A DNA stretch of 64,000 bases, taken from contig WJJZ01000010.1 in assembly GCA_014729395.1 (NCBI GenBank), forward strand, positions 23,901 to 87,900, read 5' to 3'. The position numbers were made by a program, and so were the translations under genes. Shown piece after piece: positions 18,607 to 45,280 of this stretch; the first letter of the stretch is position 1; each line of letters begins with the position of its first letter. A model generated the notes under the pieces. It had not been told where the DNA came from. It saw only the letters and a list, made by a program, of their open reading frames with translations, and did not search any database. This DNA is from Candidatus Magasanikiibacteriota bacterium (lineage in GTDB: Bacteria > Patescibacteriota > Patescibacteriia > Magasanikbacterales > UBA922).

Positions 18607-19458
18607 TCAAGATCCCTTTACATCTCGCCCGGCACACATTACTGTGTTCAAAAGCAATCTTGCTACAGTAATCGGACCGATTCCGCCCGGGGTTGGAGTT
18701 ACATAGTCGGCCTTTTTTTTCACCTCTTCAAAATCAACATCACCGCGAATTTTATTTTCATCAAAGTGGATACCGGTATCGATTACTATCGTACCATCAC
18801 TCACCATGTCGGCCGACAAAATATCTTTCTTTCCAACTGCTGTTGCTATTACATCAGCTCGCAAGCATTTTTCTTTTATATTTTTTGTAAATTCATTGCA
18901 GGTGGTTACACTCGCCCCGGCATTTATCATCATAATGGCCAAAGGTTTACCAACCAAGGCTCCTGTCCCGATGATTATCACCTCTTTCCCTTTGACATTA
19001 AAATTTATTTCTTCAAGAACATTCATAACAGCGGCCGGTGTGGGTGGAGTAATATAGTTGGTGTGCTTAACCAGTTTACCCAAATTAGCATCGGTCAAAC
19101 AGTCAACATCAAGCTCCGGTTTTATGGCGTTTAAGACTCTGGGTGTGTATAGGTGATCCGGTAATGGAATTTGTACAATTAGTCCGCTTAAAGTTTTATC
19201 AGACTGAATTTTTTCTATTTCTTTTACAATATCTTCCATAGAAATATCAGCGTCAAAATGAAATAGTTCAAACTCAATCCCAACACTGCCGGCAGCTTGT
19301 TCTTTTTTCTTTACATATTTTTTTGAAGGCTTGTCATCACCAATCAAAACAACCGCCAGCTTGGTATTAATCCCCTGCTTTTTCAGCTCTTTTACTTTTG
19401 TCGCTGTTTTCTGATTGATTTTTTTTGCAATCGCCTTGCCGTCAATAATATTATTCAT
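18607..19458 (-). CDS. folD: Bifunctional methylenetetrahydrofolate dehydrogenase/cyclohydrolase
   Basis: Full-length FolD: KKYV, PLP..L, GTGALVGKP and TPTPGGIGP motifs. Confidence 0.9.
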   Translation of the reverse strand: MNNIIDGKAIAKKINQKTATKVKELKKQGINTKLAVVLIGDDKPSKKYVKKKEQAAGSVGIEFELFHFDADISMEDIVKEIEKIQSDKTLSGLIVQIPLPDHLYTPRVLNAIKPELDVDCLTDANLGKLVKHTNYITPPTPAAVMNVLEEINFNVKGKEVIIIGTGALVGKPLAIMMINAGASVTTCNEFTKNIKEKCLRADVIATAVGKKDILSADMVSDGTIVIDTGIHFDENKIRGDVDFEEVKKKADYVTPTPGGIGPITVARLLLNTVMCAGRDVKGS

Positions 19459-29621: not shown

Positions 29622-29819
29622 TTACTTTGTACCAAGGAAACCAGGCCAACCGCCCTTTTTCTTCCAAACATCTGAATAGGTTTGGTGTGGACCAGACGGG
29701 AGACGGAGGTCCTGTTTGTAGCCTTTGATATATCCTCTAGAGGTTTTAAACCCCAAAGCCTGGGCAGCTTTGGAAGCTTCTTCCCAAGTTTCGTAGAAAC
29801 TAATTATTTTTTTACCCAA
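29622..29819 (-). pseudogene. Frameshift-separated fourth copy of the helicase C-terminal repeat
   Basis: Encodes GKKIISFYETWEEASKAAQALGFKT..GGWPGFLG, identical in pattern to repeats 1-3 of the upstream helicase. Separated by a +1 frameshift in a G3 (vs G2) run near 29835. Confidence 0.5.
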
Positions 29820-31392
29820 GAAACCAGGCCAACCGCCCTTTTTCTTTCCAGACCTCGGAGTAACTATTATTCGGGTCAGATGGAAGACGGAGGTCTTTTC
29901 TGTAGTGTTCTTGGTATTCTGTTTTAGTTTTAAACCCCAAAGCCTGGGCAGCTTTGGAAGCTTCTTCCCAGGTTTCGTAGAAACTAATTATCTTCTTACC
30001 CAAGAAACCAGGCCAACCGCCTTTTTCTTTCCAGACCTCGGAGTAACTCTTATTCGGGTAAGATGGAAGACGGAGGTCTTTTCTGTAGTGTTCTTTGTAT
30101 TCTGTTACAGTTTTAAACCCCAAAGCTTGTGCAGCTTTGGAGGCTTCTTCCCAGGTAGGGTAGAAATTCCGAGACAGCATAACATCAACATAGTCGAGAA
30201 TCCCGACAACCTCTTCCAAGTACTCATCATAGAACACCTTAAAGCCGGTTGAGACCTCTCTCACATCGGTGTCATAATCATCCCGAAGGCCGACAGAAAC
30301 CAGCTGTCCGATGAATTCCAAGCGCCGGTAGGTGCCGACAAAGTCCATGACAACCACTTTTTGCTTGTCTCTGGTCTTGCGCAGACCTCGACCGAGCTGC
30401 TGGTACCAGACTACGGCGCTTCTGGTTGAACGCAGGAAGACGATCAGGTCAACAGTGGGGATGTCAATTGCTTCATTGAACATATCCACCGTGAGTAGTG
30501 TCCGAATCTCTCCTCTTTGAAACGCTTGGAAGCGCTCTTTGAGAGTCTTTGTCTTGAGGCCCGAATGGTATGACACAGCCTCGGGAAAGTATTTGTTGAC
30601 TCTCCTAAGGTGGCTGATCGAACGACAGAAAATGACCGCCTGTTTGTCAGCAACCGACTGCTCGGCTTTGACAGTTTCGGCAATCGCTTCCAGTTTTTCA
30701 ACTAGAAAGAGATTTTTGTCAAGTTTTGTCTTTGAAATGGAGCGGTCCTCTTGCCTGACTCTCTCGATGAGATCTTGTATAACCTCTCTTGAGATGTTGT
30801 CGGTCAAGAGCCGGTACTCCACCTCAGCCAGCCACTCGTTGTCAGCGAGTGCCTCTTTCAAGCCGTAGGAGTATACCTCGTCTCCAAAGATATCCCTGAT
30901 ATCAAGACCATCTCCCCTGAAAGGAGTAGCGGTCATACCAAGCATGAACCGGGGTGTGAAGTAGTCGATGATTTCCTTGTAGGTCTCTGCATGAGAATGA
31001 TGAGCCTCGTCTACGATGACAAGAGAAAACTCATCCTCTTCCAGCTCCCAAACAAGGCTTTCCTGCATGGTCTGAAAAGTACTAAGGAGCACCGTGGCAT
31101 CCTTATCTTCTTTGACCACGCCATTGACAATCGAGATGCCGGGCTTGTCCTCAAGACTGAAGAGAGCCTCTTCAAACTCCTGTTTGGCCTGATACAGCGG
31201 GTCGGTCATATGAAGGATAAAGAGAACTTTACCTCCATAATTTTCCAACCAATAGCGAATGATGTTGCCGGCGAGCACTGTCTTGCCCAAGCCGGAGGCC
31301 ATGGAAATTAGAACAGTTTTGAATCCACTGCTCACGGCCTCAAGGATAGCCGACTTAGCTTCTTCCTGATAAGGTCTGAGTGTTTTCATCAC
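29812..31392 (-). CDS. SF2 (DEAH/ResIII-type) helicase with C-terminal tandem 60-aa repeats
   Basis: Motif I MASGLGKT, motif II VIVDEAHH, motif III TATP, motif VI QQLGRGLR; followed by three repeats of ETWEEASKAAQALGFKT..EY..YRKDLRLPS.PN.SYSEVWKEKGGWPGFLG. Confidence 0.8.
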   Translation of the reverse strand: MMKTLRPYQEEAKSAILEAVSSGFKTVLISMASGLGKTVLAGNIIRYWLENYGGKVLFILHMTDPLYQAKQEFEEALFSLEDKPGISIVNGVVKEDKDATVLLSTFQTMQESLVWELEEDEFSLVIVDEAHHSHAETYKEIIDYFTPRFMLGMTATPFRGDGLDIRDIFGDEVYSYGLKEALADNEWLAEVEYRLLTDNISREVIQDLIERVRQEDRSISKTKLDKNLFLVEKLEAIAETVKAEQSVADKQAVIFCRSISHLRRVNKYFPEAVSYHSGLKTKTLKERFQAFQRGEIRTLLTVDMFNEAIDIPTVDLIVFLRSTRSAVVWYQQLGRGLRKTRDKQKVVVMDFVGTYRRLEFIGQLVSVGLRDDYDTDVREVSTGFKVFYDEYLEEVVGILDYVDVMLSRNFYPTWEEASKAAQALGFKTVTEYKEHYRKDLRLPSYPNKSYSEVWKEKGGWPGFLGKKIISFYETWEEASKAAQALGFKTKTEYQEHYRKDLRLPSDPNNSYSEVWKEKGRLAWFLG

Positions 31393-31535
31393 TGACTCTC
31401 CTATGTGAAAGTTTTGTTTTTGAATGTACGATTAACGGCTAAGTTTAGTATAAAATTGAAATTTTGTCAAGTTAAATAAAATATCCCTATTTTTAGGGAT
31501 ATTTTTGAATAATTTTTGTCTAATTATAGCCTAAT

Positions 31536-33161
31536 TTACTTATCAATCGCTGCCTTTATAAACTCTCGAAACAGCGGATGTGGCTTCATCGGACGAGATT
31601 TGAATTCCGGATGAAACTGAGTACCCACAAAGAAAGGATGATTTTCTAACTCGACTATTTCCACTAAATCGGCATCTTTGTTCATACCAACCACTTTCAA
31701 GCCGGCTTTATCCACTTCATCTCGATAATCATTATTAAATTCGTATCTGTGACGATGACGTTCGCTGATTTTTTCTTCACCATAGGCGCGCTTTACCATC
31801 GAAGATTCTTTCAGACTGCAATCATAAGCACCTAAACGCATAGTTCCTCCATATCTATTTTCTTTTACATTTTTTGCCTGATTTGGATTTATGTGAATTA
31901 CAGGTTCAGGTGTATCCGGATCCATCTCAACCGTATTTGCATTTGTTTTACCCAGTACATTTCTCACAAACTCTACCGAAGCTAATTGCATACCATAACA
32001 CAATCCCAAATACGGTACTTTATTTTCTCTTGCATAACGGATTGCTTCGATAATTCCCTCCACACCTCTTGTACCAAAACCACCAGGAACAATAATCCCA
32101 TGATAATCTGATAATTTTTTTATACTATCGGATTCATTTTCAAAATCTTCTGAATCCACCCAATCCAATTCAGGCTCGACACCATTAAACCAGGCAGCAT
32201 GTTTTATTGCTTCGATTACCGATATATATGAATCAGCCAAAGTAAATTCTCCAGTTCCGAAGTATTTTCCAACTACGGCGATCTTTATTTTTTTATCCAA
32301 ATTATCTATTTTTGAAACAAAAGATTGCCAGGTCGACATGTCACTTTCTCTATTGTCAATTTTCAACTTGTTTAAGAGTTTATTACCAATATCCTGTTCT
32401 TCTAATTTCAAAGGAATTTCATAAATGGAAGAGACATCCGGTGCGGAAATACAATTATCACGAGGGATACCACAGTGTATTGCCAATTTCTCTCTTCGTG
32501 GCTGATCCAATTCAAACTGGCCTCTAGCTATCAACATGTCAGCATTCAAACCGGCACTGTTTAAGGCTCTTGAAGCATGCTGGGTCGGCTTGGTTTTCAT
32601 TTCACCCAGATGTTTTGGTACAGGCAAATAGCTAACCAGAACAAAGGCTACATTATCCGGATTTTTCAATCTCATTCTTCTTCCTGCTTCTAAAAATAAA
32701 ATATTTTCATATTCACCCACGGTTCCGCCAACTTCAATGATTGTAATATCCGCATCATGCATATCCGCAGAGGTTTCAATTCGTCTTATTATTTCTTCCG
32801 GAATATGGGGTACAACCTGAACACATTTTCCATTGTATTTCATTGTTCGTTCATTCTCTATTACAGTCAAATAAACACGTCCGGTTGTCATATAATTTAT
32901 GGAGCCCAGACTGGTGTCCAAAAAGCGTTCATAGTTGCCCATATCCTGATCCGTCTCATCGCCATCATCTGTTACAAATACTTCACCATGCTCTGTAGGG
33001 TTCATCGTACCGGCATCAACATTCACATAAGGGTCCACCTTTAATGCGGTTACCTTAAAACCTTTGGTTCTAAAAATTGCCCCCAAAGATGCCGTGGTTA
33101 CACCTTTTCCAACACCACTCAATACACCTCCCACTACAAATATGTACTTTCTTTGTTTCAT
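31536..33161 (-). CDS. pyrG: CTP synthase
   Basis: GVGKG P-loop, synthetase domain and C-terminal GATase (GLCYGMQ, H..E). Start taken at MKQRKY, 9 codons inside the ORF. Confidence 0.9.
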   Translation of the reverse strand: MKQRKYIFVVGGVLSGVGKGVTTASLGAIFRTKGFKVTALKVDPYVNVDAGTMNPTEHGEVFVTDDGDETDQDMGNYERFLDTSLGSINYMTTGRVYLTVIENERTMKYNGKCVQVVPHIPEEIIRRIETSADMHDADITIIEVGGTVGEYENILFLEAGRRMRLKNPDNVAFVLVSYLPVPKHLGEMKTKPTQHASRALNSAGLNADMLIARGQFELDQPRREKLAIHCGIPRDNCISAPDVSSIYEIPLKLEEQDIGNKLLNKLKIDNRESDMSTWQSFVSKIDNLDKKIKIAVVGKYFGTGEFTLADSYISVIEAIKHAAWFNGVEPELDWVDSEDFENESDSIKKLSDYHGIIVPGGFGTRGVEGIIEAIRYARENKVPYLGLCYGMQLASVEFVRNVLGKTNANTVEMDPDTPEPVIHINPNQAKNVKENRYGGTMRLGAYDCSLKESSMVKRAYGEEKISERHRHRYEFNNDYRDEVDKAGLKVVGMNKDADLVEIVELENHPFFVGTQFHPEFKSRPMKPHPLFREFIKAAIDK

Positions 33162-35736: not shown

Positions 35737-36348
35737 TCAACAACGTCTGTTGGCTGCTGGCGGTTGGCGGTTGGCTGTAATGACATACTTTGCCAACATA
35801 TCAAATTCAATATTAACTTTATCGCCTATTTTTAATCGCCCCAGAGTTGTGTTTTTCAAAGTATATTCAATCAGTGAAACCGTAAATCCACTTTCTTCAA
35901 CTCTTGCCACTGTCAAACTCACCCCATCAACCGCAACTGACCCTTCCGGGGTAATGTATTGCATCCACTCTGATGGAATTTTGATACTCACGAGCTTATT
36001 ATCTCCTTCCGCAACAATATTTTCCACCTTACCTACACAATCAACATGACCATAAACAAAATGACCACCGATTTCATCACCAACTTTAAGTGAAGTTTCC
36101 AGATTTACTTTATCACCAATTTTTTTTTGCCCAAGAGAAGTCTTTCGCAAAGTCTCGGGCATAACTTCAAAAAAAATTTTACCATCTTTTTTTTCAAAAA
36201 CTGTTAAGCAAACACCGCTATTACAAATACTTGCCCCAAATTCAACTCTCGAAGCTGCGTCAAGCTCTTTTATAACAAAAATAAAGCCTTGAGCTTTTGG
36301 CTTTATCTCAACTATCTCCCCCATTTCTTTAATTATTCCTGAAAACAT
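35737..36348 (-). CDS. ribE: Riboflavin synthase alpha subunit
   Basis: MFSGII N-terminus and duplicated lumazine-binding barrels (GASICNSGVCLTV / GSVAVDGVSLTV). Confidence 0.85.
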   Translation of the reverse strand: MFSGIIKEMGEIVEIKPKAQGFIFVIKELDAASRVEFGASICNSGVCLTVFEKKDGKIFFEVMPETLRKTSLGQKKIGDKVNLETSLKVGDEIGGHFVYGHVDCVGKVENIVAEGDNKLVSIKIPSEWMQYITPEGSVAVDGVSLTVARVEESGFTVSLIEYTLKNTTLGRLKIGDKVNIEFDMLAKYVITANRQPPAANRRC

Positions 36349-36447
36349 ACTACAAATACTTTAATATCCTGATATTCGGATAATTCAGATTTTCGTATTT
36401 ACTAATGATCTTATTATAAAACCTGTTGGATATATCCATAGATCCGC

Positions 36448-36469
36448 ACCTGCCTGCCGGCAGGCAGGT
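36448..36469. repeat. Perfect 22-bp GC-rich palindrome ACCTGCCTGCCGGCAGGCAGGT (copy 1 of 2), flanked by GATCCG direct repeats (36441-36446 and 36478-36483)
   Basis: Exact palindrome; the 20-bp core recurs at 44008-44027. Confidence 0.7.
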
Positions 36470-36499
36470 TATCAAAAGATCCGAATCTCAATGTCAAAA

Positions 36500-36844
36500 T
36501 TACTCAAATATTCCCCTTATCATTTCCAAATCTCTTTCTATTTTTTCTTTTAATTCATATTGAGAATTATAGCGACACATTTCACTCACTTTTTGAATCG
36601 GCTCAACTTCTATATATGTTCCATAGAAATCTCCACCTTTATAATCGATCAAATGAACCTCAACTTTCCAAGGACTGCTCTGAATAGCCAATGCCCCCTG
36701 GTATTTTTTTCGTCTTAAACCAACCCACACCGCGTAGACACCACTTTCCAGGTCAATTTTTCTTTTCGGTGTATCAAGATTGGCTGTCGGATAGCCTATT
36801 TTTTTACCTATCTCATCACCGCGTATTACAATACCGCTAAACAT
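36500..36844 (-). CDS. Riboflavin kinase (monofunctional RibF C-terminal-domain homolog)
   Basis: GDEIGKKIGYPTANL..E.HL pattern of riboflavin kinase; 114 aa. Confidence 0.65.
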   Translation of the reverse strand: MFSGIVIRGDEIGKKIGYPTANLDTPKRKIDLESGVYAVWVGLRRKKYQGALAIQSSPWKVEVHLIDYKGGDFYGTYIEVEPIQKVSEMCRYNSQYELKEKIERDLEMIRGIFE

Positions 36845-36908: not shown

Positions 36909-38168
36909 CTATTGTTTTAATATTTCAATTGCTTTTTCCATACCTTTATCATTAATAATATTTTCACCATCAGTCCCTTCGGCCACAAACATCTCTTCAA
37001 CAATAACATCCGGCATTATACCTTCCTCATCAATTTGTCTGTCATTTGGAGTATACCATCTGGCTACTGTCAATTTAAGGGCGGATCCGTCAGATAATGT
37101 TTCAAAATCTTGTACAGATCCTTTTCCAAAAGTCTGCACACCAACAATGGTTGCCAAGCTGTAATCTTGCAGAGCACCGGCAACTATTTCAGATCCGGAG
37201 GCGGTTCCGCCATCTACCAAAATAACAGTTGGTATATCGGCAAATCTATGCTTACCTCTGCTTTTATATTCATTGACTCGTCCGTCGCTGTATCTTTCCC
37301 GAACTATAACACCGCTTTCCACCCACTCTCCGGCCACATCTACCGATGTTTGAAGGAAACCTCCCGGGTTGCTGCGCAAATCAAGAATCACCCCTTTTGG
37401 AGAATTCATGATTATTTCTCTAACCGCTTTATCAAACTCAGTCCATGTGTCCTCATTAAAATAACTGATTCTCAAATAATATAAATCATTTTCTTTTTGT
37501 TCCCAAGATACGGTTGGTACGTTAATTGTGTCCCTCACAATACTAACTTCTTCGATTTCATCATACCCATCATGGCTGACAGTCAAGACTACCTCACTAC
37601 CCTTTGGACCGCGTATTTTGCTGACAGCCTCGTCAAGAGATAATTCAAAAGTATCTTCTCCATCAATTGCATAAACCTTATCACCGGCTTGTAAACCGGA
37701 TTTTTCCGCCGGTGAATCCGGCAACGGAGCAATAATTGTCAATTGTTCATTTCTAATTCCAATTTCCGCACCAATGCCCTCAAATTCACCCGCTAAATCC
37801 TTTACAAATTCTTCTGCCTTTTTTGGTCTAAAATAAACAGAATAAGGGTCTTTAAGCCCTGAAACCAAGCCCTCCATTGCTCCATAATATAAATCTTCAT
37901 CATTTACAGGCTGTACTACATATTTTTCCTTAATTTTATCCCATAATTCCCAAAACTGATCAAAGTCCAATTCATCGGATTTTCCATTTTTATATAAATT
38001 TAAAACCTGGGCTACTTCCACACTACCATCATCATTTATTATTTTTTGATCATTATTCCAAGATAAACCAACTAAAAGTCCAAATCCAAAAGTCAGTATA
38101 GCCAAACTTACAGGTATAATTGTTTTCGTTGTATATTTTTTTACAAAAAATTTCATATTAATCGTCAA
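36909..38168 (-). CDS. Carboxyl-terminal processing (S41) protease
   Basis: N-terminal TM, PDZ domain, GVILDLRSNPGG and FGKGSVQ catalytic motifs. Confidence 0.85.
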   Translation of the reverse strand: MTINMKFFVKKYTTKTIIPVSLAILTFGFGLLVGLSWNNDQKIINDDGSVEVAQVLNLYKNGKSDELDFDQFWELWDKIKEKYVVQPVNDEDLYYGAMEGLVSGLKDPYSVYFRPKKAEEFVKDLAGEFEGIGAEIGIRNEQLTIIAPLPDSPAEKSGLQAGDKVYAIDGEDTFELSLDEAVSKIRGPKGSEVVLTVSHDGYDEIEEVSIVRDTINVPTVSWEQKENDLYYLRISYFNEDTWTEFDKAVREIIMNSPKGVILDLRSNPGGFLQTSVDVAGEWVESGVIVRERYSDGRVNEYKSRGKHRFADIPTVILVDGGTASGSEIVAGALQDYSLATIVGVQTFGKGSVQDFETLSDGSALKLTVARWYTPNDRQIDEEGIMPDVIVEEMFVAEGTDGENIINDKGMEKAIEILKQ

Positions 38169-42067: not shown

Positions 42068-43168
42068 TTACCAAAAAATTATTCTGATTATTATACTGTA
42101 ATAAACTTTCATTATAGGGTTGGCAAAATTTGTCAGTAAAGGATTTTTCATTTCTTTTTCCTGAAACAATATTTCAGATTTGGTATTTTTTAATAATATT
42201 TTATCTTTTACTTTTCTTAATTTTTGTATTTTTTTTCTTTTCTTTAGCCATTTTTTCAAATTGCTTATGTTCAGCCAGTATTTATAAACACGCAACCTCT
42301 CTCTGCTATAACCTTTTTTTAAACTAAAATACCACAAACCCAACTCCAAAACAAAGGCCATTGGCAACAACATTATCAACGTAGCAAATTTAAAGTAAAG
42401 CAGCATTACAGCATGACGATTCCTTTCCATCAAAAAAAATTTTTTCATGCTGCGACCAAATTGATATTTATGAAAAAATACTGAATCACTGGAAAGCATA
42501 ATTTTATATCCGGCCAAACGCATCCTCAGAGATATTTCCAAATCCTCGTGATACATAAAAAAATCTTCATCCCATAAACCCATCTTATCGACCAGGCTAA
42601 GCCTCAACATCATCGCTGCACCGCTCGCATAATCAATTTTTTTGAGTTTAGGTAAATCCACTTCATTTTTCTTTTTACCATACTTATCACAAAAACCGAA
42701 ACCGAGATAATGAAAACTATTGCCGGCACTATTTATCAATTCCGTGTCCGGATAAAGAAGCATAAGTGACTGTAAAATAGCGATTTGTTTATCATGCTCC
42801 ATAGCGTCTACCAACGGTCTGATTGCATTGGAAGCTAAAAAGCCATCGTTATTGTGAAAATATATATAATCAAAATCATTTTTTACCGCCCACTCGGCAC
42901 CTTTGTTATTGCCCCCCGCAAAACCTAAATTTTCCTTTTGCGACAAAATTGTAATAGAAGGTAGTTCATTACCGGACAATGGCATTACATGCTCGTTAAT
43001 ATAGCGGACAAAAGATCCGTCTTCCGGGTGCGGGTTACTTACGATAATCAACTCCATTCTATCTTTAGGATAATCAATTTTTTTTAAAGCGGAAACAGCA
43101 TCATTTATATATGACTCATTATGATAATACAATAAATATACGATTGCCACTTTAGGATTTTGATTCAT
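42068..43168 (-). CDS. Family 2 glycosyltransferase
   Basis: GT2 DxD context (HNNDG) and the Q..R..LAGY region. Confidence 0.65.
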   Translation of the reverse strand: MNQNPKVAIVYLLYYHNESYINDAVSALKKIDYPKDRMELIIVSNPHPEDGSFVRYINEHVMPLSGNELPSITILSQKENLGFAGGNNKGAEWAVKNDFDYIYFHNNDGFLASNAIRPLVDAMEHDKQIAILQSLMLLYPDTELINSAGNSFHYLGFGFCDKYGKKKNEVDLPKLKKIDYASGAAMMLRLSLVDKMGLWDEDFFMYHEDLEISLRMRLAGYKIMLSSDSVFFHKYQFGRSMKKFFLMERNRHAVMLLYFKFATLIMLLPMAFVLELGLWYFSLKKGYSRERLRVYKYWLNISNLKKWLKKRKKIQKLRKVKDKILLKNTKSEILFQEKEMKNPLLTNFANPIMKVYYSIIIRIIFW

Positions 43169-43985
43169 AATACTTTTTATTACCCTTCCATTTCCACATA
43201 TAGCGAAACCAGCTTTTTATATGAATTCTGGCTAATTTATTTTTTAACAGAGCCCTTACGACTCCGGGAACTTTGGCCGAACCACGACCGTGTGAATGCT
43301 TTATTACTATATCATGTACATAATATACAGGCCAACCTGATTCCCACATACGCCTGCACAAGTCACTGTCTTCGGCATACATAAAAAAACTTTCATCAAA
43401 TAAGCCAACCTCTTCCAATGCTGCGCTTCTTGCAAACATTGCCGAACCCATTACCCAATCTACCGGTATGGTTTGTTTATGGTCAAAGTCCATCATCAAA
43501 AATTTATTTTTAATTTTCTTGCCCATACCCCGTTCACCCAGCTTGGTGCGGCTGAATATTGGTTGAAAGAAAACCGGAAAACGATAGCATGAATATTGTA
43601 ATGACCCGTCCGGATATATAATTTTTGGTCCAATTAATCCGATTTTTGTATTTTTTTCCATAAAATCATACATTTTTCGAATTGTATTTGCATTTTCAGG
43701 AAATATCGTATCCGGATTTAGTATAAATTGATATTTGGCTGCATGACGTTTTATACCAATATTCTGAGACATACCAAAACCCAAATTCTTTGATTGAGCT
43801 ACAAAATCCATATTCGGGTATTTTTTTCTTATAAATTCACCCACATCATCATTGGAATCATTATCAATCAAAACAATATTTACGTTCAAAGCCGAATTTT
43901 TTATATCATTGGACAATGAAGCAAGACATTTTTCAATGTCATCTTTCATCTTGTAGTTTACAATTGATATGTTTATGTCCTTCAT
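43152..43985 (-). CDS. Family 2 glycosyltransferase
   Basis: ISIVNY..IDNDSND..GF..N.G GT2 motifs. Start taken at MKDINIS; the longer ORF would run through the upstream palindrome. Confidence 0.7.
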   Translation of the reverse strand: MKDINISIVNYKMKDDIEKCLASLSNDIKNSALNVNIVLIDNDSNDDVGEFIRKKYPNMDFVAQSKNLGFGMSQNIGIKRHAAKYQFILNPDTIFPENANTIRKMYDFMEKNTKIGLIGPKIIYPDGSLQYSCYRFPVFFQPIFSRTKLGERGMGKKIKNKFLMMDFDHKQTIPVDWVMGSAMFARSAALEEVGLFDESFFMYAEDSDLCRRMWESGWPVYYVHDIVIKHSHGRGSAKVPGVVRALLKNKLARIHIKSWFRYMWKWKGNKKYYESKS

Positions 43986-44007
43986 AATATTATAATGCGG
44001 ATATACG

Positions 44008-44027
44008 CCTGCCTGCCGGCAGGCAGG
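44008..44027. repeat. Perfect 20-bp GC-rich palindrome CCTGCCTGCCGGCAGGCAGG (copy 2 of 2), flanked by CGGAT direct repeats
   Basis: Identical to the core at 36449-36468; CGGAT at 43998-44002 and 44044-44048. Confidence 0.7.
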
Positions 44028-44200
44028 GATGCATCCAGATTTACGGATTGTTTGGTGTATAACCCGATAATATATATTGTTATCCAATATTCGTATCAAC
44101 AAAATTTTCGAATTTGTTAATAATACCTTGGACCAAAATTATACTATCCATGAATCCGGACCTGTCCCGCTGTGGCGGGATTATCTGTATATCCGAATCG

Positions 44201-45280
44201 TTACATCCACCAACGGCGCAACTCACGCCAATTGCTTTTTTTCATCTTATTTACCGCGGAGCGTCTTTTTTTCAAAAAATCCATAGAATTGAACAGATCC
44301 TTCAATCCAAGCAATACTCTTCTATCAATAAATAGATAATACATGAACTTTTGTAATTCATACCATAAAATCCAAGGAAAATCAAGTATAAAATTTTGCC
44401 AGTATTCATTTTTATATAAGGTAGCCAGATGATTTTTATAGCTATAATACTTTACAAAAAAACTTTGTTTTGCCTTCCTCCTATGATTCGATATTCGATT
44501 GTCATTTAAAAATCTTTCGCATGTTCTATCATGAAAAGCTACTGACGATAGCAACATTACAGATTGTCGTCCACTAATTCGTAACCTGTAGGCCAAATCA
44601 ACATCCTCTTTATAGGATTTATAAGACTCATCGAACAATTTAGCATTTTCATAAACTATATTTTCGATATCTGATTTTCTATAAAAAACCAATGCCCCTG
44701 ATAAACCAAATACTTCAATATTGTTCAAACTTCTCAATTTTGCGATCATTTTATTTTTTGATTGGTTTGACCAAATCTCACCGCTTAATTGGTCTACCAC
44801 TTGTCTATTTCTTCTAACTTTTAAACCAAGGGAGTCTATTTTTAAACTAAAACTTTTGTGAAGTCCGCTTTTTTTATTGTTGTCTGGATCTGATGCAACT
44901 TTATTAAAATTCCATTTCAATAATCTGGGTGCGACAGCTGTAATATGAGGGTGATCATCAAGATATTTAACCATGTTATGAATGCAATTCGAAGGTAAAT
45001 AAATATCTTGGTTTATTATTGCAAAATAATCTGTATTTGTTTTTTTATATAACTTATTATGACCCCCGGAAAAACCGCTATTATCTTTACTTTCATATAT
45101 TTTTGTTTGAACACCTAAATTACTCGCTTCATTTTCAATCAATTTAAGGGTATCATCTTCAGAATTATTATCCCATACTTGCAATTTCCAATCCTTAAAA
45201 CTTTGCTTTTTAAGAGAATCAAAAAGATAAGGGATATATTTTGATCCGTTCCAGGTAACAAGATTTACGGTTAACTTCAT
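44201..45280 (-). CDS. Family 2 glycosyltransferase
   Basis: VTWNGSKY..DNNSED GT2 N-terminal motifs. Confidence 0.65.
   Translation of the reverse strand: MKLTVNLVTWNGSKYIPYLFDSLKKQSFKDWKLQVWDNNSEDDTLKLIENEASNLGVQTKIYESKDNSGFSGGHNKLYKKTNTDYFAIINQDIYLPSNCIHNMVKYLDDHPHITAVAPRLLKWNFNKVASDPDNNKKSGLHKSFSLKIDSLGLKVRRNRQVVDQLSGEIWSNQSKNKMIAKLRSLNNIEVFGLSGALVFYRKSDIENIVYENAKLFDESYKSYKEDVDLAYRLRISGRQSVMLLSSVAFHDRTCERFLNDNRISNHRRKAKQSFFVKYYSYKNHLATLYKNEYWQNFILDFPWILWYELQKFMYYLFIDRRVLLGLKDLFNSMDFLKKRRSAVNKMKKSNWRELRRWWM

Follow-up and report, generated by a model that had tools for sequence, protein, structure and literature searches.

A perfect 20-bp palindrome (hereafter P) inserts into bacterial and phage DNA cleanly, adding exactly 20 bp and leaving the target unduplicated, and the same palindrome constitutes a conserved cis-element at the 5' edge of small GIY-YIG nuclease cassettes residing in tRNA genes. 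The two copies of P present in the window (i.e. the entire 64-kb stretch of DNA that was analyzed) are probably orphan ("solo") representatives of this selfish element, which is tied to the GIY-YIG cassettes and would be mobilized by their nuclease. Neither a description nor an Rfam family was found for the association of P with the nuclease, and a full-text literature search (by sequence fragments and by concept, including one paper on tRNA introns of Patescibacteria) returned no description of P or of the cassette.

The two copies of P in the window

The coordinates of both copies and of the surrounding features are given in Table 1. The perfect 22-bp palindrome at copy 1, the exact recurrence of its 20-bp core at copy 2 and the intergenic location of both, all of which had been proposed in a first-pass annotation of this DNA, are borne out by the window sequence. 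Both copies lie between genes on the minus-strand gene axis. No third copy was detected in the 64-kb window with up to 3 mismatches allowed (a density of 2 copies per 64 kb), and none of 100 dinucleotide shuffles of the window produced a match to P. A CTGCCGGCAG match at 19286, considered as a possible P relic, was rejected as ordinary FolD coding sequence.

Table 1. Coordinates of the P copies, the flanking genes and the local repeat in the window
Feature	Position	Strand	Remark
P copy 1, perfect 22-bp palindrome ACCTGCCTGCCGGCAGGCAGGT	36448-36469	.	
P copy 1 core, 20-bp P = CCTGCCTGCCGGCAGGCAGG	36449-36468		
P copy 2, exact 20-bp core CCTGCCTGCCGGCAGGCAGG	44008-44027	.	
Riboflavin kinase domain protein (PF01687)	36500-36844	-	upstream of P copy 1
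Riboflavin synthase ribE (PF00677)	35737-36348	-	downstream of P copy 1
Family-2 glycosyltransferase	43152-43985	-	downstream of P copy 2; real start = ATG 43983-43985
Family-2 glycosyltransferase	44201-45280	-	upstream of both P copy 2 and repeat copy B
Local intergenic repeat, copy A (~125 bp)	36362-36487	-	carries P copy 1
Local intergenic repeat, copy B	44079-44199	-	

Copy 1 is located 30 nt past the stop codon of the riboflavin-kinase-domain gene, the ATG of ribE (36346-36348) following 99 nt downstream. The ribE product is 100% identical to a protein from one Candidatus Magasanikbacteria metagenome-assembled genome (MAG), and its next relatives are only ~65% identical, so that orthologous spacers are not alignable. 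Exact-protein look-ups with the two flanking genes returned no entry. Copy 2 precedes the start codon of the downstream glycosyltransferase gene by 22 nt, with the stop codon of the previous glycosyltransferase gene 173 nt upstream. A long TTG-initiated ORF running through copy 2 (..PACRQAG..) owes its existence to the absence of stop codons from P in every frame; false long ORFs arise from P in this way, as exemplified by 43152-44102 in the window. The earlier view that the palindrome is not a simple terminator stands, as neither copy is followed by a U-run (the gene-strand sequence directly 3' of the hairpins reads GCGGATC.. and CGTATAT.., respectively) and a terminator scan made no call at either. 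The RNA hairpins predicted at the two copies with their flanks have energies of -22 to -23.5 kcal/mol (z ~ -3). Rfam models, run at thresholds as loose as E<=1, matched tRNAs only and nothing at P, both for the window and for six cassette loci, and no GIY-YIG gene was revealed in the 64-kb window when its ORFs of at least 25 aa in all six frames were searched with a profile. The two copies are most likely neutral passengers, contributing at most a stable RNA hairpin between co-directional genes.

Copy 1 is embedded in a local intergenic repeat. Within repeat copy A it is framed by two conserved flanks, TATCCATAGATCCGCA on one side and TTATCAAAAGATCCGAATC on the other, and the repeat spans both GATCCG motifs (36441-36446 and 36478-36483). 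Repeat copies A and B are identical at 67/91 positions to the left of the hairpin and 15/19 to the right, their alignment score exceeding those of 500/500 shuffles. In copy B, between flanks as in copy A, the 20 nt equivalent to P are CCTGTCCCGCTGTGGCGGGA (44161-44180), which include a different hairpin, TCCCGC-TGTG-GCGGGA, at 44165-44180; the CCTGTCCCGCTGTGGCGGGA 20-mer had 0 viral matches and is thus not widespread. These data bear on the proposal that both P copies are bracketed by short CGGAT(C) direct repeats at a comparable distance. The motifs themselves are indeed present (the two GATCCG at copy 1; CGGAT at 43998-44002 and 44044-44048 at copy 2), but their orientations are opposite and their distances unequal (2/8 nt vs 5/16 nt). 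Nor do they represent target duplications or element ends, as the flanks of P are random elsewhere and here form part of the local ~125-bp repeat.

Distribution of P and its mode of insertion

Far from being restricted to two sites without counterparts in relatives, exact P was found by an exact-match scan in at least 120 species genomes of about ten phyla, including seven cultured isolates, against a chance expectation of ~0.5 (by the arithmetic 596e9/4^20). Among the matches listed, each P-bearing stretch comes from a different genome, megabase contigs showing one stretch apiece. The hosts comprise Patescibacteria, Bacteroidota, Omnitrophota, Planctomycetota, several proteobacterial lineages, Nitrospirota and phages. 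In viral contigs P occurs in 35 stretches, and 0 matches each were obtained in the same scan for four control palindromes (one palindrome of the same composition, one with the arms swapped, the other hairpin 20-mer of the window and a second palindrome from the cassettes). The P-richest viral contig carries 6 copies in 29.5 kb, with structural proteins encoded near the copies; over the 28 kb examined it shows no gene of the GIY-YIG type. The invariance of P in this sample (the P-first set) is partly by construction, because it was gathered by exact match; mutated variants, nested insertions and decayed copies of P do exist.

The comparison of filled sites with paralogous empty sites, the latter found by searching the joined flanks, revealed an exact 20-bp insertion without target duplication. 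Internal empty sites are provided by the duplicated tRNA 5' parts of five loci (L037, L106, L118, L152 and L030), and paralogous or orthologous ones were available for solo P (L022, L049, L124, L091 vs L046, L141/L149, L083, L093 and L109). For the copy in Winogradskyella echinorum a syntenic empty site was not obtained, the compared contig being non-syntenic downstream; the CoA-transferase beside this copy is 98% identical across genera. The direct repeat adjoining P is 0-1 nt long at 142/161 sites and reaches 5 nt or more at only 9. Repeats of 7-8 nt at some sites, considered as target duplications, were rejected as they lie in short tandem-repeat tracts. The sequence around 165 copies from other genomes is of random composition beyond position +-1 (random from -12 to -2, with A occupying -1 at 42% of sites), which places the flanks outside the element. 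The suggestion of a tiny mobile palindromic element is thereby upheld in its general form, the same 20-mer being a clean insertion in many phyla and viruses. The check proposed alongside, whether copies are always intergenic and flanked by CGGAT, comes out negative on both counts, as P also occupies coding and tRNA sequence and the flanks of these 165 copies are random.

The contexts of P include intergenic DNA, fragments of tRNA and 5S genes, and in-frame protein-coding sequence. Read in frame, the palindrome encodes LPAGRQ, and xLPAGRQx was found within membrane proteins as well as in FtsK, RfbB and GatB. The frame stays open over long stretches to either side of it, and it falls at alignment gaps relative to solved homologues. 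P sites are rarer in long open frames (36/145 vs 71-89/145). In tRNAs the insertion points are positions 9-10, 14-15, 20-24, 32 and 39. An inverted-repeat arm abuts solo P in 9.9% of sites vs 2.4% of controls (p ~2e-6), and whole-fold prediction showed no enrichment of solo P in hairpin loops (0.35 vs 0.38). P was also observed nested in the center of another P and as tandem copies 13 nt apart (L018, L042 and L127).

Cassettes of a small GIY-YIG nuclease and the proposed origin of solo copies

When all ORFs within 250 nt of P in the P-first set were clustered, GIY-YIG emerged as the sole protein family recurring beside P in at least 4 unrelated non-viral genomes. No transposase or other family, considered as an alternative mobilizing enzyme, recurs within this distance. 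Five of the nine GIY-YIG ORFs of the P-first set lie within 150 nt of P (vs ~0.4 expected), and a GIY-YIG ORF adjoining P was recorded at L037, L060, L106, L118 and L152. The cassette nuclease is a protein of about 80 aa with a GIY-YIG domain (PF01541) of the UPF0213 type, the members of which, relatives of E. coli YhbQ, form a large uncharacterized family.

The converse sampling, by 77 unique metagenomic loci fetched solely by GIY-YIG protein similarity (the GIY-first set), is free of the exact-match bias for the invariance of P. Exact P is present in 39/77 of these loci and P within 2 edits in 52/77, proportions which describe the sampled clade and not all UPF0213 proteins, as the sample was seeded with P-adjacent proteins. 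P is placed upstream of the ORF at a distance of 5-43 nt (median 23), on its 5' side only, and a tRNA directly follows the nuclease ORF in 55 of the 77 loci. The elements of the cassettes follow one another in the order [tRNA 5' fragment A]-P-[short B']-[nuclease ORF]-[intact tRNA A+B]. The P-linked nucleases, scattered over the whole family tree, diverge to a median of about 52% amino-acid identity while P remains unchanged; a separate nuclease clade has its own upstream motif, GGGTAGTGAAA.. Among other arrangements, a cassette was found in or beside 23S rRNA (L093), P and the ORF lie within hsdS without flank duplication in L060, and tandem cassette units are present in L159. Decayed copies were found elsewhere: in L083 the ORF is reduced to ATGTTCTATGTTTATATTC between A-P-B' and the intact tRNA; L030, L093 and L109 retain A-P-B'...A-B with spacers of about 30-220 nt; and ORF remnants are seen at L010 and L039. 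Cultured phage records yielded distant GIY-YIG matches only, and no adjoining GIY-YIG ORF or remnant is present at 164/169 P sites found by sequence (~97%).

The recurrent adjacency of P and the nuclease suggests that the latter mobilizes the former. In such a mechanism the cassette nuclease would have P, as DNA or as a hairpin, for its cognate site, and solo copies would be non-autonomous derivatives set in trans at nuclease-made breaks, some of them possibly being residues after loss of the ORF. The relation would recall that between REP and RAYT or between a MITE and an IS, though with another chemistry. The breaks may favor stem/loop junctions, of which the D loop and the anticodon loop of tRNAs would be examples. 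A more specific proposal, that P is the smallest known mobile DNA, non-coding, inserted by trans-acting UPF0213 nucleases at stem/loop junctions and other breaks without duplicating the target and serving also as the end of cassettes that rebuild their tRNA genes, and that the two together have crossed at least ten bacterial phyla and the phages of these, is offered tentatively, as conceivable rather than probable. Several observations count against the account as a whole. To read a site of 20 bp, a GIY-YIG protein of 80 aa with a single domain is small; the A-P-B'...A-B duplication fits no simple cut-and-ligate scheme; predicted hairpin loops hold no excess of solo sites; and most P sites have no nuclease gene beside them, nor was one seen in the 64-kb window or in the 28 kb examined of the P-richest viral contig.

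Among the alternatives, P might be an independent selfish palindrome spread by a host or some other mechanism, at which GIY-YIG homing endonucleases merely land or which they recognize. We consider this unlikely, though it would account for the large excess of solo over nuclease-linked copies, for P-rich viral contigs without a nuclease gene in the sequence seen, for P and ORF sharing hsdS in L060 without flank duplication, and for an ORF 5-43 nt away on one side, as for a free-standing homing gene beside its recognition site. It is at odds with the position of P within the duplicated, non-functional tRNA fragment of the tRNA cassettes; if the tRNA gene is present only once, insertion of a solo P into it would in most cases be lethal, which makes a "P first, nuclease second" order awkward there. 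Moreover, no rival mobilizing enzyme recurs beside P. Solo copies could also be scars of full cassettes left after ORF deletion, for instance by B'/B recombination, P never moving alone. Such recombination would yield A-P-B, i.e. a clean insertion, and the four decayed cassettes together with the two ORF remnants described above are of the expected kind. Still, this derivation of solo P is improbable in view of the fact that most solo sites are outside tRNA and rRNA genes and without flank duplication or ORF remnant, that coding copies of P amount to only about 7-8 codons, and that nested P and tandem P 13 nt apart are hard to obtain via gain and loss of whole cassettes.

There is very little to recommend P as a host signal, i.e. 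an operator through which a dedicated regulator would control rib and glycosyltransferase genes, or else a hairpin in the RNA serving as an unconventional terminator or mRNA stabilizer, with a sequence that arose by convergence, even though both copies are intergenic on the transcribed axis, form stable RNA hairpins and, in the case of copy 2, stand only 22 nt ahead of a start codon. The two downstream genes are functionally unrelated, a U-tract and a terminator call are absent at both copies, no Rfam family matches, same-composition palindromes are absent from the viral scan, and the paralogous repeat bears a different hairpin at the same place. The same 20-mer recurs in at least 120 unrelated genomes, be it in coding frames, in fragments of tRNAs or in random DNA between genes, as well as in phages; the dedicated regulator-binding site envisaged in the first-pass annotation is difficult to reconcile with more than 150 other copies in such unrelated contexts. 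A sequencing, library or assembly artefact might be suspected from an identical sequence in data from many laboratories, many of the matches being MAGs. It can practically be dismissed, as P is present in cultured isolates and long-read assemblies, in contig interiors with collinear flanks and at a reproducible place in a conserved gene architecture, keeps the reading frame over hundreds of codons when coding, and exists in mutated, nested and decayed forms.

If the preferred link between P and the nuclease holds, it would represent a novel partnership between a selfish nuclease gene and a minimal palindrome. It would also make the function of UPF0213 proteins directly testable, as a candidate substrate (P) and candidate cleavage points (the helix/loop junctions of tRNA genes) have been named. 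If in addition P proves to be the smallest mobile DNA, this would supply a function for UPF0213 and an insertion chemistry unlike that of DDE, HUH, serine and tyrosine systems. Unusual traits of P are the occurrence of one exact 20-mer across phyla and phages, the lack of target duplication and its tolerance in essential proteins and RNA genes. In practical terms, P splits tRNA predictions, assemblies break at the duplicated tRNA fragments, and P could mark recent horizontal traffic among very distant lineages.

Comparison with known systems

P resembles REP/REPIN sequences in being a short GC-rich palindrome scattered in intergenic DNA, and the REP-RAYT system (TnpA-REP, HUH Y1) in lying by a gene for a single-domain nuclease thought to be its mobilizer, with a division into an autonomous gene and non-autonomous copies; as with REP, other elements insert into the palindromes. 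The REP-like label of the first-pass annotation is nevertheless inappropriate. REPs are imperfect, about 20-40 bp long, with a GTAG head, and are present in tens to hundreds of species-specific copies, whereas P is perfect, 20 bp long, starts with CCTG and is present in one or a few exact copies per genome, identical across phyla. Unlike RAYT, which is flanked by REPs, the gene linked to P encodes a GIY-YIG (UPF0213) protein and carries P on one side only, and unlike REP, P also enters coding frames and RNA genes. The likeness to MITEs, also proposed, lies in a short, non-autonomous sequence that has a palindromic outline and is akin to one end of an autonomous element. It does not extend to structure or insertion, as MITEs (50-500 bp) carry terminal inverted repeats, which match the ends of an IS, on either side of unrelated internal sequence, and their DDE transposase duplicates a fixed length of the target, while P consists of two abutted 10-nt arms, separate terminal repeats being absent, and at most sites (the 142/161 mentioned above) the target is not duplicated.

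With the free-standing GIY-YIG homing genes (Seg of phage T4, including SegB in a tRNA cluster, and I-TevI) the cassette shares the catalytic domain PF01541, a location in or beside conserved genes, a patchy distribution in bacteria and phages, and tandem or decayed copies, all of them typical marks of homing genes. The tandem and decayed units and the rebuilt target tRNAs would be indirect signs only of homing itself, in which a cassette-free allele is cut at a specific site and the cassette then copied into it. Unlike Seg and Tev, the cassette protein is only about 80 aa long and has no DNA-binding domain of its own; a copy of the target's 5' part comes with the cassette, so that an intact tRNA is rebuilt; and the cassette holds an invariant palindrome that also occurs alone. 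To our knowledge, none of these three features has been reported of the Seg or Tev enzymes.

Rickettsia palindromic elements (RPE) are, like P, selfish and palindromic, and occur between genes, in RNA genes and in frame within proteins that are left open, a likeness that concerns behavior alone. They are about 100-150 bp long and confined to Rickettsia and relatives, unlike the 20-bp P, which is found in many phyla and adds about 7-8 residues; P matched no Rfam or other family that would make it a member of the RPE families, and we know of no enzyme linked to RPE. Finally, the GC clusters and other mobile GC-rich palindromes of fungal mitochondria are likewise GC-rich hairpins in AT-rich DNA, with presence/absence polymorphism, nesting and clustering with other hairpins, and share their genomes with homing genes of the GIY-YIG or LAGLIDADG type. 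Unlike P, the GC clusters are lineage-specific, belong to other sequence families and often have short target duplications; we are aware of no fixed physical tie between them and one nuclease family, nor of any GC cluster common to several phyla.

The palindrome in the window

The perfect 22-bp palindrome described by the first-pass annotation, ACCTGCCTGCCGGCAGGCAGGT, and the exact recurrence of its 20-bp core (CCTGCCTGCCGGCAGGCAGG, hereafter P) were both confirmed (see the table; L numbers there and below denote fetched genome, viral or metagenome stretches). No further copy with up to three mismatches was found in the window (G+C ∼34%) or in its shuffles. Both sites lie among minus-strand genes, which include ribH, ribE (its protein 100% identical to one from a Candidatus Magasanikbacteria MAG, with the next relatives at ∼65%), a riboflavin-kinase-domain protein, a CtpA-like protease and MurA, followed by a series of family-2 glycosyltransferases. 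Copy 1 lies 30 nt past a stop codon and 99 nt ahead of the ribE ATG, and copy 2 lies 22 nt ahead of a glycosyltransferase ATG. The original remark that no U-run follows, and that P is not a simple terminator, holds for both copies: a terminator scan made no call at either. The Rfam scan of the window returned a single tRNA and no match at P even at E≤1. No GIY-YIG gene is present in the 64 kb, and both copies are orphans; neutrality is expected, with at most a stable hairpin contributed to transcripts. As P contains no stop codon in any frame, it can falsely lengthen ORF calls; the mechanical ORF list thus adds 39 codons to the glycosyltransferase, from an upstream TTG across copy 2 (..GCIPACRQAGVYP..), ahead of the real start.

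Copy 1 is carried by one of two paralogous copies of a ∼125-bp intergenic repeat, whose identity (67/91 plus 15/19) beats all 500 shuffles. In both, TATCCATrrATCCGsA and TTATCnnnnnATCCGAATC flank a slot of exactly 20 nt, filled by P in one copy and by CCTGTCCCGCTGTGGCGGGA, with the hairpin TCCCGC-TGTG-GCGGGA, in the other. The latter 20-mer has zero matches in the viral collection and is therefore no second element of wide distribution. Around each slot hairpin the flanks can pair on the gene strand, in part via G-U pairing. This repeat could itself be a small mobile element, or else a promoter/hairpin module specific to the lineage. The GATCCG/CGGAT brackets that had been noted around the palindrome are present, but they are local sequence of this repeat.

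Elsewhere in the window, a ∼184-nt unit occurs three times in tandem (70–75% identical to the first copy) within the part of highest G+C. Below threshold, Rfam also matched Rickettsia sRNA47 (35.7 bits vs gathering score 60, E 1.9e-6) antisense to part of the CtpA-like protease gene; sequence composition is the probable cause.

Coordinates of P copies, related palindromes and side features
Feature	Stretch	Position (strand)	Remark
P copy 1	window	36448-36469	22-bp form
P copy 2	window	44008-44027	20-bp core
∼125-bp repeat with P	window	36362-36487	directly upstream of ribE
Paralogous ∼125-bp repeat	window	44079-44199	glycosyltransferase spacer
Hairpin in CCTGTCCCGCTGTGGCGGGA slot	window	44165-44180
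Glycosyltransferase, listed ORF	window	43152-44102 (minus)	from TTG
Glycosyltransferase, real start	window	43983-43985	ATG
∼184-nt tandem units	window	29632-30182
Highest-G+C part	window	30001-32000	44.5%
sRNA47 match	window	37070-37273 (+)	sub-threshold
Solo P, filled vs empty site	L022	5271 vs 2734
Solo P, filled vs empty site	L049	4511 vs 7235
Solo P, filled vs empty site	L124	14278 vs 7535
Second palindrome family	L039	880-915
Second palindrome family	L200	∼1440-1480
Second palindrome family	L226/L230		∼30-65 nt upstream of ORF
Second palindrome family	L072	1577
Other hairpin near P	L011	3313-3348
Other hairpin near P	L016	160-175
Other hairpin near P	L112	1890-1998
GIY-YIG ORF in 23S rRNA gene	L093	4758-5042 (minus)	Saccharibacteria MAG
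P in 5S-rRNA-like fragment	L093	927	duplicated fragment
Tandem P-variant units	L154	3916-4125	viral contig
CoA-transferase locus	L012	2516-3868	Winogradskyella

An exact 20-bp insertion common to many phyla

An exact-match scan of 596 Gb (one genome per species) found P in at least 120 stretches, each listed stretch from a different genome, against a chance expectation, by our own arithmetic, of ∼0.5 for a 20-mer palindrome. P also occurs in 35 stretches of the viral collection, certain contigs having 3–6 copies each, and none of the controls run on that collection had a match (a palindrome of the same composition, the version with swapped arms, GGCAGGCAGGCCTGCCTGCC, and two further hairpins from cassettes or the window). 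Hence P is not limited to two sites with none in relatives, the outcome that had earlier been equated with chance or local duplication. A rough count from record titles among the matches listed gives Patescibacteria of many classes (∼36), Bacteroidota with Ignavibacteria (∼39), Omnitrophota (∼10), Planctomycetota/PVC/Verrucomicrobiota (∼8), records labelled Gamma- or Pseudomonadota (∼12), Delta-type, Bdellovibrionales or Thermodesulfobacteriota (∼6), Thermodesulfovibrionales (∼3), Chloroflexi (∼1) and Elusimicrobia (∼1). The listed P-bearing genomes are mostly of 30–50% G+C and include seven cultured isolates: Winogradskyella echinorum, Flagellimonas yonaguniensis, Longitalea luteola, Flavivirga sp., Aquiflexum lacus, Agriterribacter humi and Aestuariivivens sediminis.

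A comparison of 165 distinct copies shows mutually unrelated flanks. The only deviations are an A at −1 (42%) and, mirroring it, a T at +1, so that about a quarter of P copies have the 22-bp form of copy 1. Recurrent variants differ solely at positions 8, 9 and 13. The copies are thus neither always CGGAT-flanked nor always intergenic, as the first-pass annotation had proposed to check, since coding and tRNA copies exist.

Joined flanks of every P copy were searched against all fetched DNA for empty sites, and filled and empty sites differ by exactly 20 bp in every case. In five stretches (L037, L106, L118, L152, L030) P lies inside a partial 5′ tRNA-gene copy, with the intact, uninterrupted tRNA a few hundred bases downstream (e.g. 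gtggtaga-P-gcagcggc vs gtggtagagcagcggc). Several solo copies (those without an adjoining nuclease ORF) have empty counterparts in the same stretch (see the table), in another genome (L091 vs L046) or at several sites of a viral contig (L141/L149); in L083, L093 and L109 the empty copy lies 60–220 nt downstream of P. In agreement with these comparisons, the adjacent direct repeat is 0–1 nt at 142 of 161 sites; it reaches 5–14 nt at nine, mostly within short tandem-repeat tracts. Overall, P is an inserted element common to many phyla, and most of its copies are solo.

P sites are rarer in long open frames (36/145 vs 71–89/145 random sites), and many of the 36 are in high-GC contigs, where open frames come cheap. 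Genuine coding copies all use one frame, as in FtsK (..NLPAGRQA.., L013), RfbB (..ALPAGRQA.., L021), GatB (..DLPAGRQV.., L104) and the membrane proteins of L043, L071 and L074, and the extra residues form alignment gaps in loops of solved homologues. A viral tRNA-Met (L145), otherwise complete, carries P within its variable loop. P also nests within P itself, centrally or next to the centre (L018, L042, L021). Inverted-repeat arms of at least 6 nt abut the insertion point at 9.9% of solo sites vs 2.4% of controls (p ∼2e-6), yet a whole-fold test for hairpin-loop location of solo sites was negative; a structural component in targeting is therefore likely, but not a general one.

Two further observations concern individual loci. 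Viral contig L154 has at least ten tandem 21-bp units of the P variant CATGCCTACCGGCAGGCAGGC, reaching the end of the fetched stretch. At the Winogradskyella locus, a 3-oxoacid CoA-transferase (proteins P0121-P0126) is 98% identical among Winogradskyella, Pseudozobellia, Aurantibacter and Maribacter, with non-syntenic downstream DNA, and is either unusually conserved or recently exchanged.

The linked GIY-YIG nuclease and its tRNA cassettes

In L037, L106, L118, L152 and L060 a small ORF begins 20–41 nt past P. Its product has a GIY-YIG catalytic domain (PF01541), matches the structural-genomics UPF0213 proteins 1YWL and 1ZG2, and received no NCBIfam name. This is the sole protein family adjoining P recurrently in at least four unrelated non-viral genomes.

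In a reverse test, an alignment of five P-linked proteins retrieved 77 unique metagenome-contig loci by protein similarity alone. Exact P lies within 80 nt upstream of the ORF at 39 of these and P within two edits at 52, many of the loci scored as P-less carrying P derivatives or another palindrome; a tRNA gene starts just past the ORF at 55, and 44 have both features (P within two edits). P ends 5–43 nt (median 23) before the ORF. The P halves are parted by a central insert in L179, L180, L187 and L220, and P is degenerate in L183, L193 and L216. The downstream tRNAs are Arg (20), Leu (20), and also Lys, Phe, Asn, Gly, Met, Val, Gln and Thr.

The usual layout is a tRNA 5′ part (A), P, 3–30 nt matching the tRNA after A (B′), a spacer, the ORF and the intact tRNA (A-B). 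A-P-B′-ORF units occur in tandem in L159, and in L060 P and the ORF sit in frame inside hsdS without flank duplication. P follows tRNA positions 20–24 (the D-loop end) at 22 loci, 14–15 at five, 9–10 at two, 32 at three and 39 at one, all of them helix/loop junctions of the cloverleaf, and nearly all have an adenine as the base just ahead of P. P is thus conserved at the 5′ side of the UPF0213 GIY-YIG cassettes that occupy tRNA genes. As side findings, the Saccharibacteria MAG has a same-family ORF inserted in a 23S rRNA gene, and P in a duplicated 5S-rRNA-like fragment.

The P-linked nucleases have a median identity of 52% (5th–95th percentile 44–68%) and are spread over the entire family tree. 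A separate clade (L182, L205, L233, with L203 also listed) lacks both P and a neighbouring tRNA; instead, a motif of its own, GGGTAGTGAAA / GGGTAGTGAAAnTTnG...GCGATT-ATG, is conserved ∼30 nt upstream of the ORF (at about 1501 / 942) and occurs twice in inverted orientation in L233. The constancy of P beside a diverging gene, together with clade-specific upstream elements, points to protein and element being functionally tied in a specific way.

In some cassettes the place of P is taken by a second family, CCCGCCCG..GTACCG..CGGTAC..CGGGCGGG, which resembles a palindrome nested off the centre of a second one; this family also occurs solo, and no viral sequence matches its idealised outer 22-mer exactly. 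At the P-first loci, GC-rich hairpins other than P reach 1.4 per kb within 200 nt of P, about double the density elsewhere (0.7 per kb). Certain types turn up in genomes that are unrelated (TCCGCCAGCTGGCGGA in three loci, and TCCCGC..GCGGGA types), suggesting that more palindrome families exist.

Mechanism, alternatives and known systems

We propose, with moderate confidence, that P, as such or as a hairpin/cruciform, is recognised by the nuclease, which makes the breaks that receive P, or P with the ORF; solo copies would therefore be non-autonomous relatives of the cassette. P is a perfect X plus reverse complement of X (X = CCTGCCTGCC), and this symmetry and the lack of target duplication agree with a self-complementary, blunt unit being inserted, or with the two ends of a break being processed alike. 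They are at odds with staggered-cut transposition. The cassette would do no harm because the tRNA is rebuilt, and its transcription would probably be driven by the tRNA promoter.

That P is an independent element merely targeted by the nuclease is possible, though we consider it rather unlikely. The chances are slimmer still that solo copies are scars of lost cassettes, which would account for decayed loci (e.g. L083, L030, L093, L109) but fails for most sites and for coding and nested copies. A host signal, either an operator (the dedicated regulator site offered by the first-pass annotation) or a terminator, is very improbable: the settings of P in other genomes argue against it, as do the lack of a U-tract and the fact that the paralogous repeat carries a different hairpin. 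We give almost no credence to an artefact, as P occurs in isolates, keeps reading frames, has a conserved architecture and exists in decayed variants. The earlier idea of a mobile palindrome survives in substance, as an exact 20-bp insertion across phyla, but not in its REP/MITE and flank details.

Neither Rfam nor the literature, searched by sequence and by concept with incomplete coverage that makes an earlier description possible, yielded anything on P or the cassette; P and its small GIY-YIG nuclease apparently form a widespread, undescribed pairing. P resembles REP/RAYT in combining a palindrome with its own nuclease gene, Rickettsia palindromic elements in its in-frame insertion, and mitochondrial GC clusters in placing GC hairpins in AT-rich DNA, while the cassettes resemble free-standing GIY-YIG homing genes; P fails the defining features of each of these families that could be tested. 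We would place the pair with selfish palindromes that have a cognate nuclease, and its mechanism of insertion may prove new in kind.
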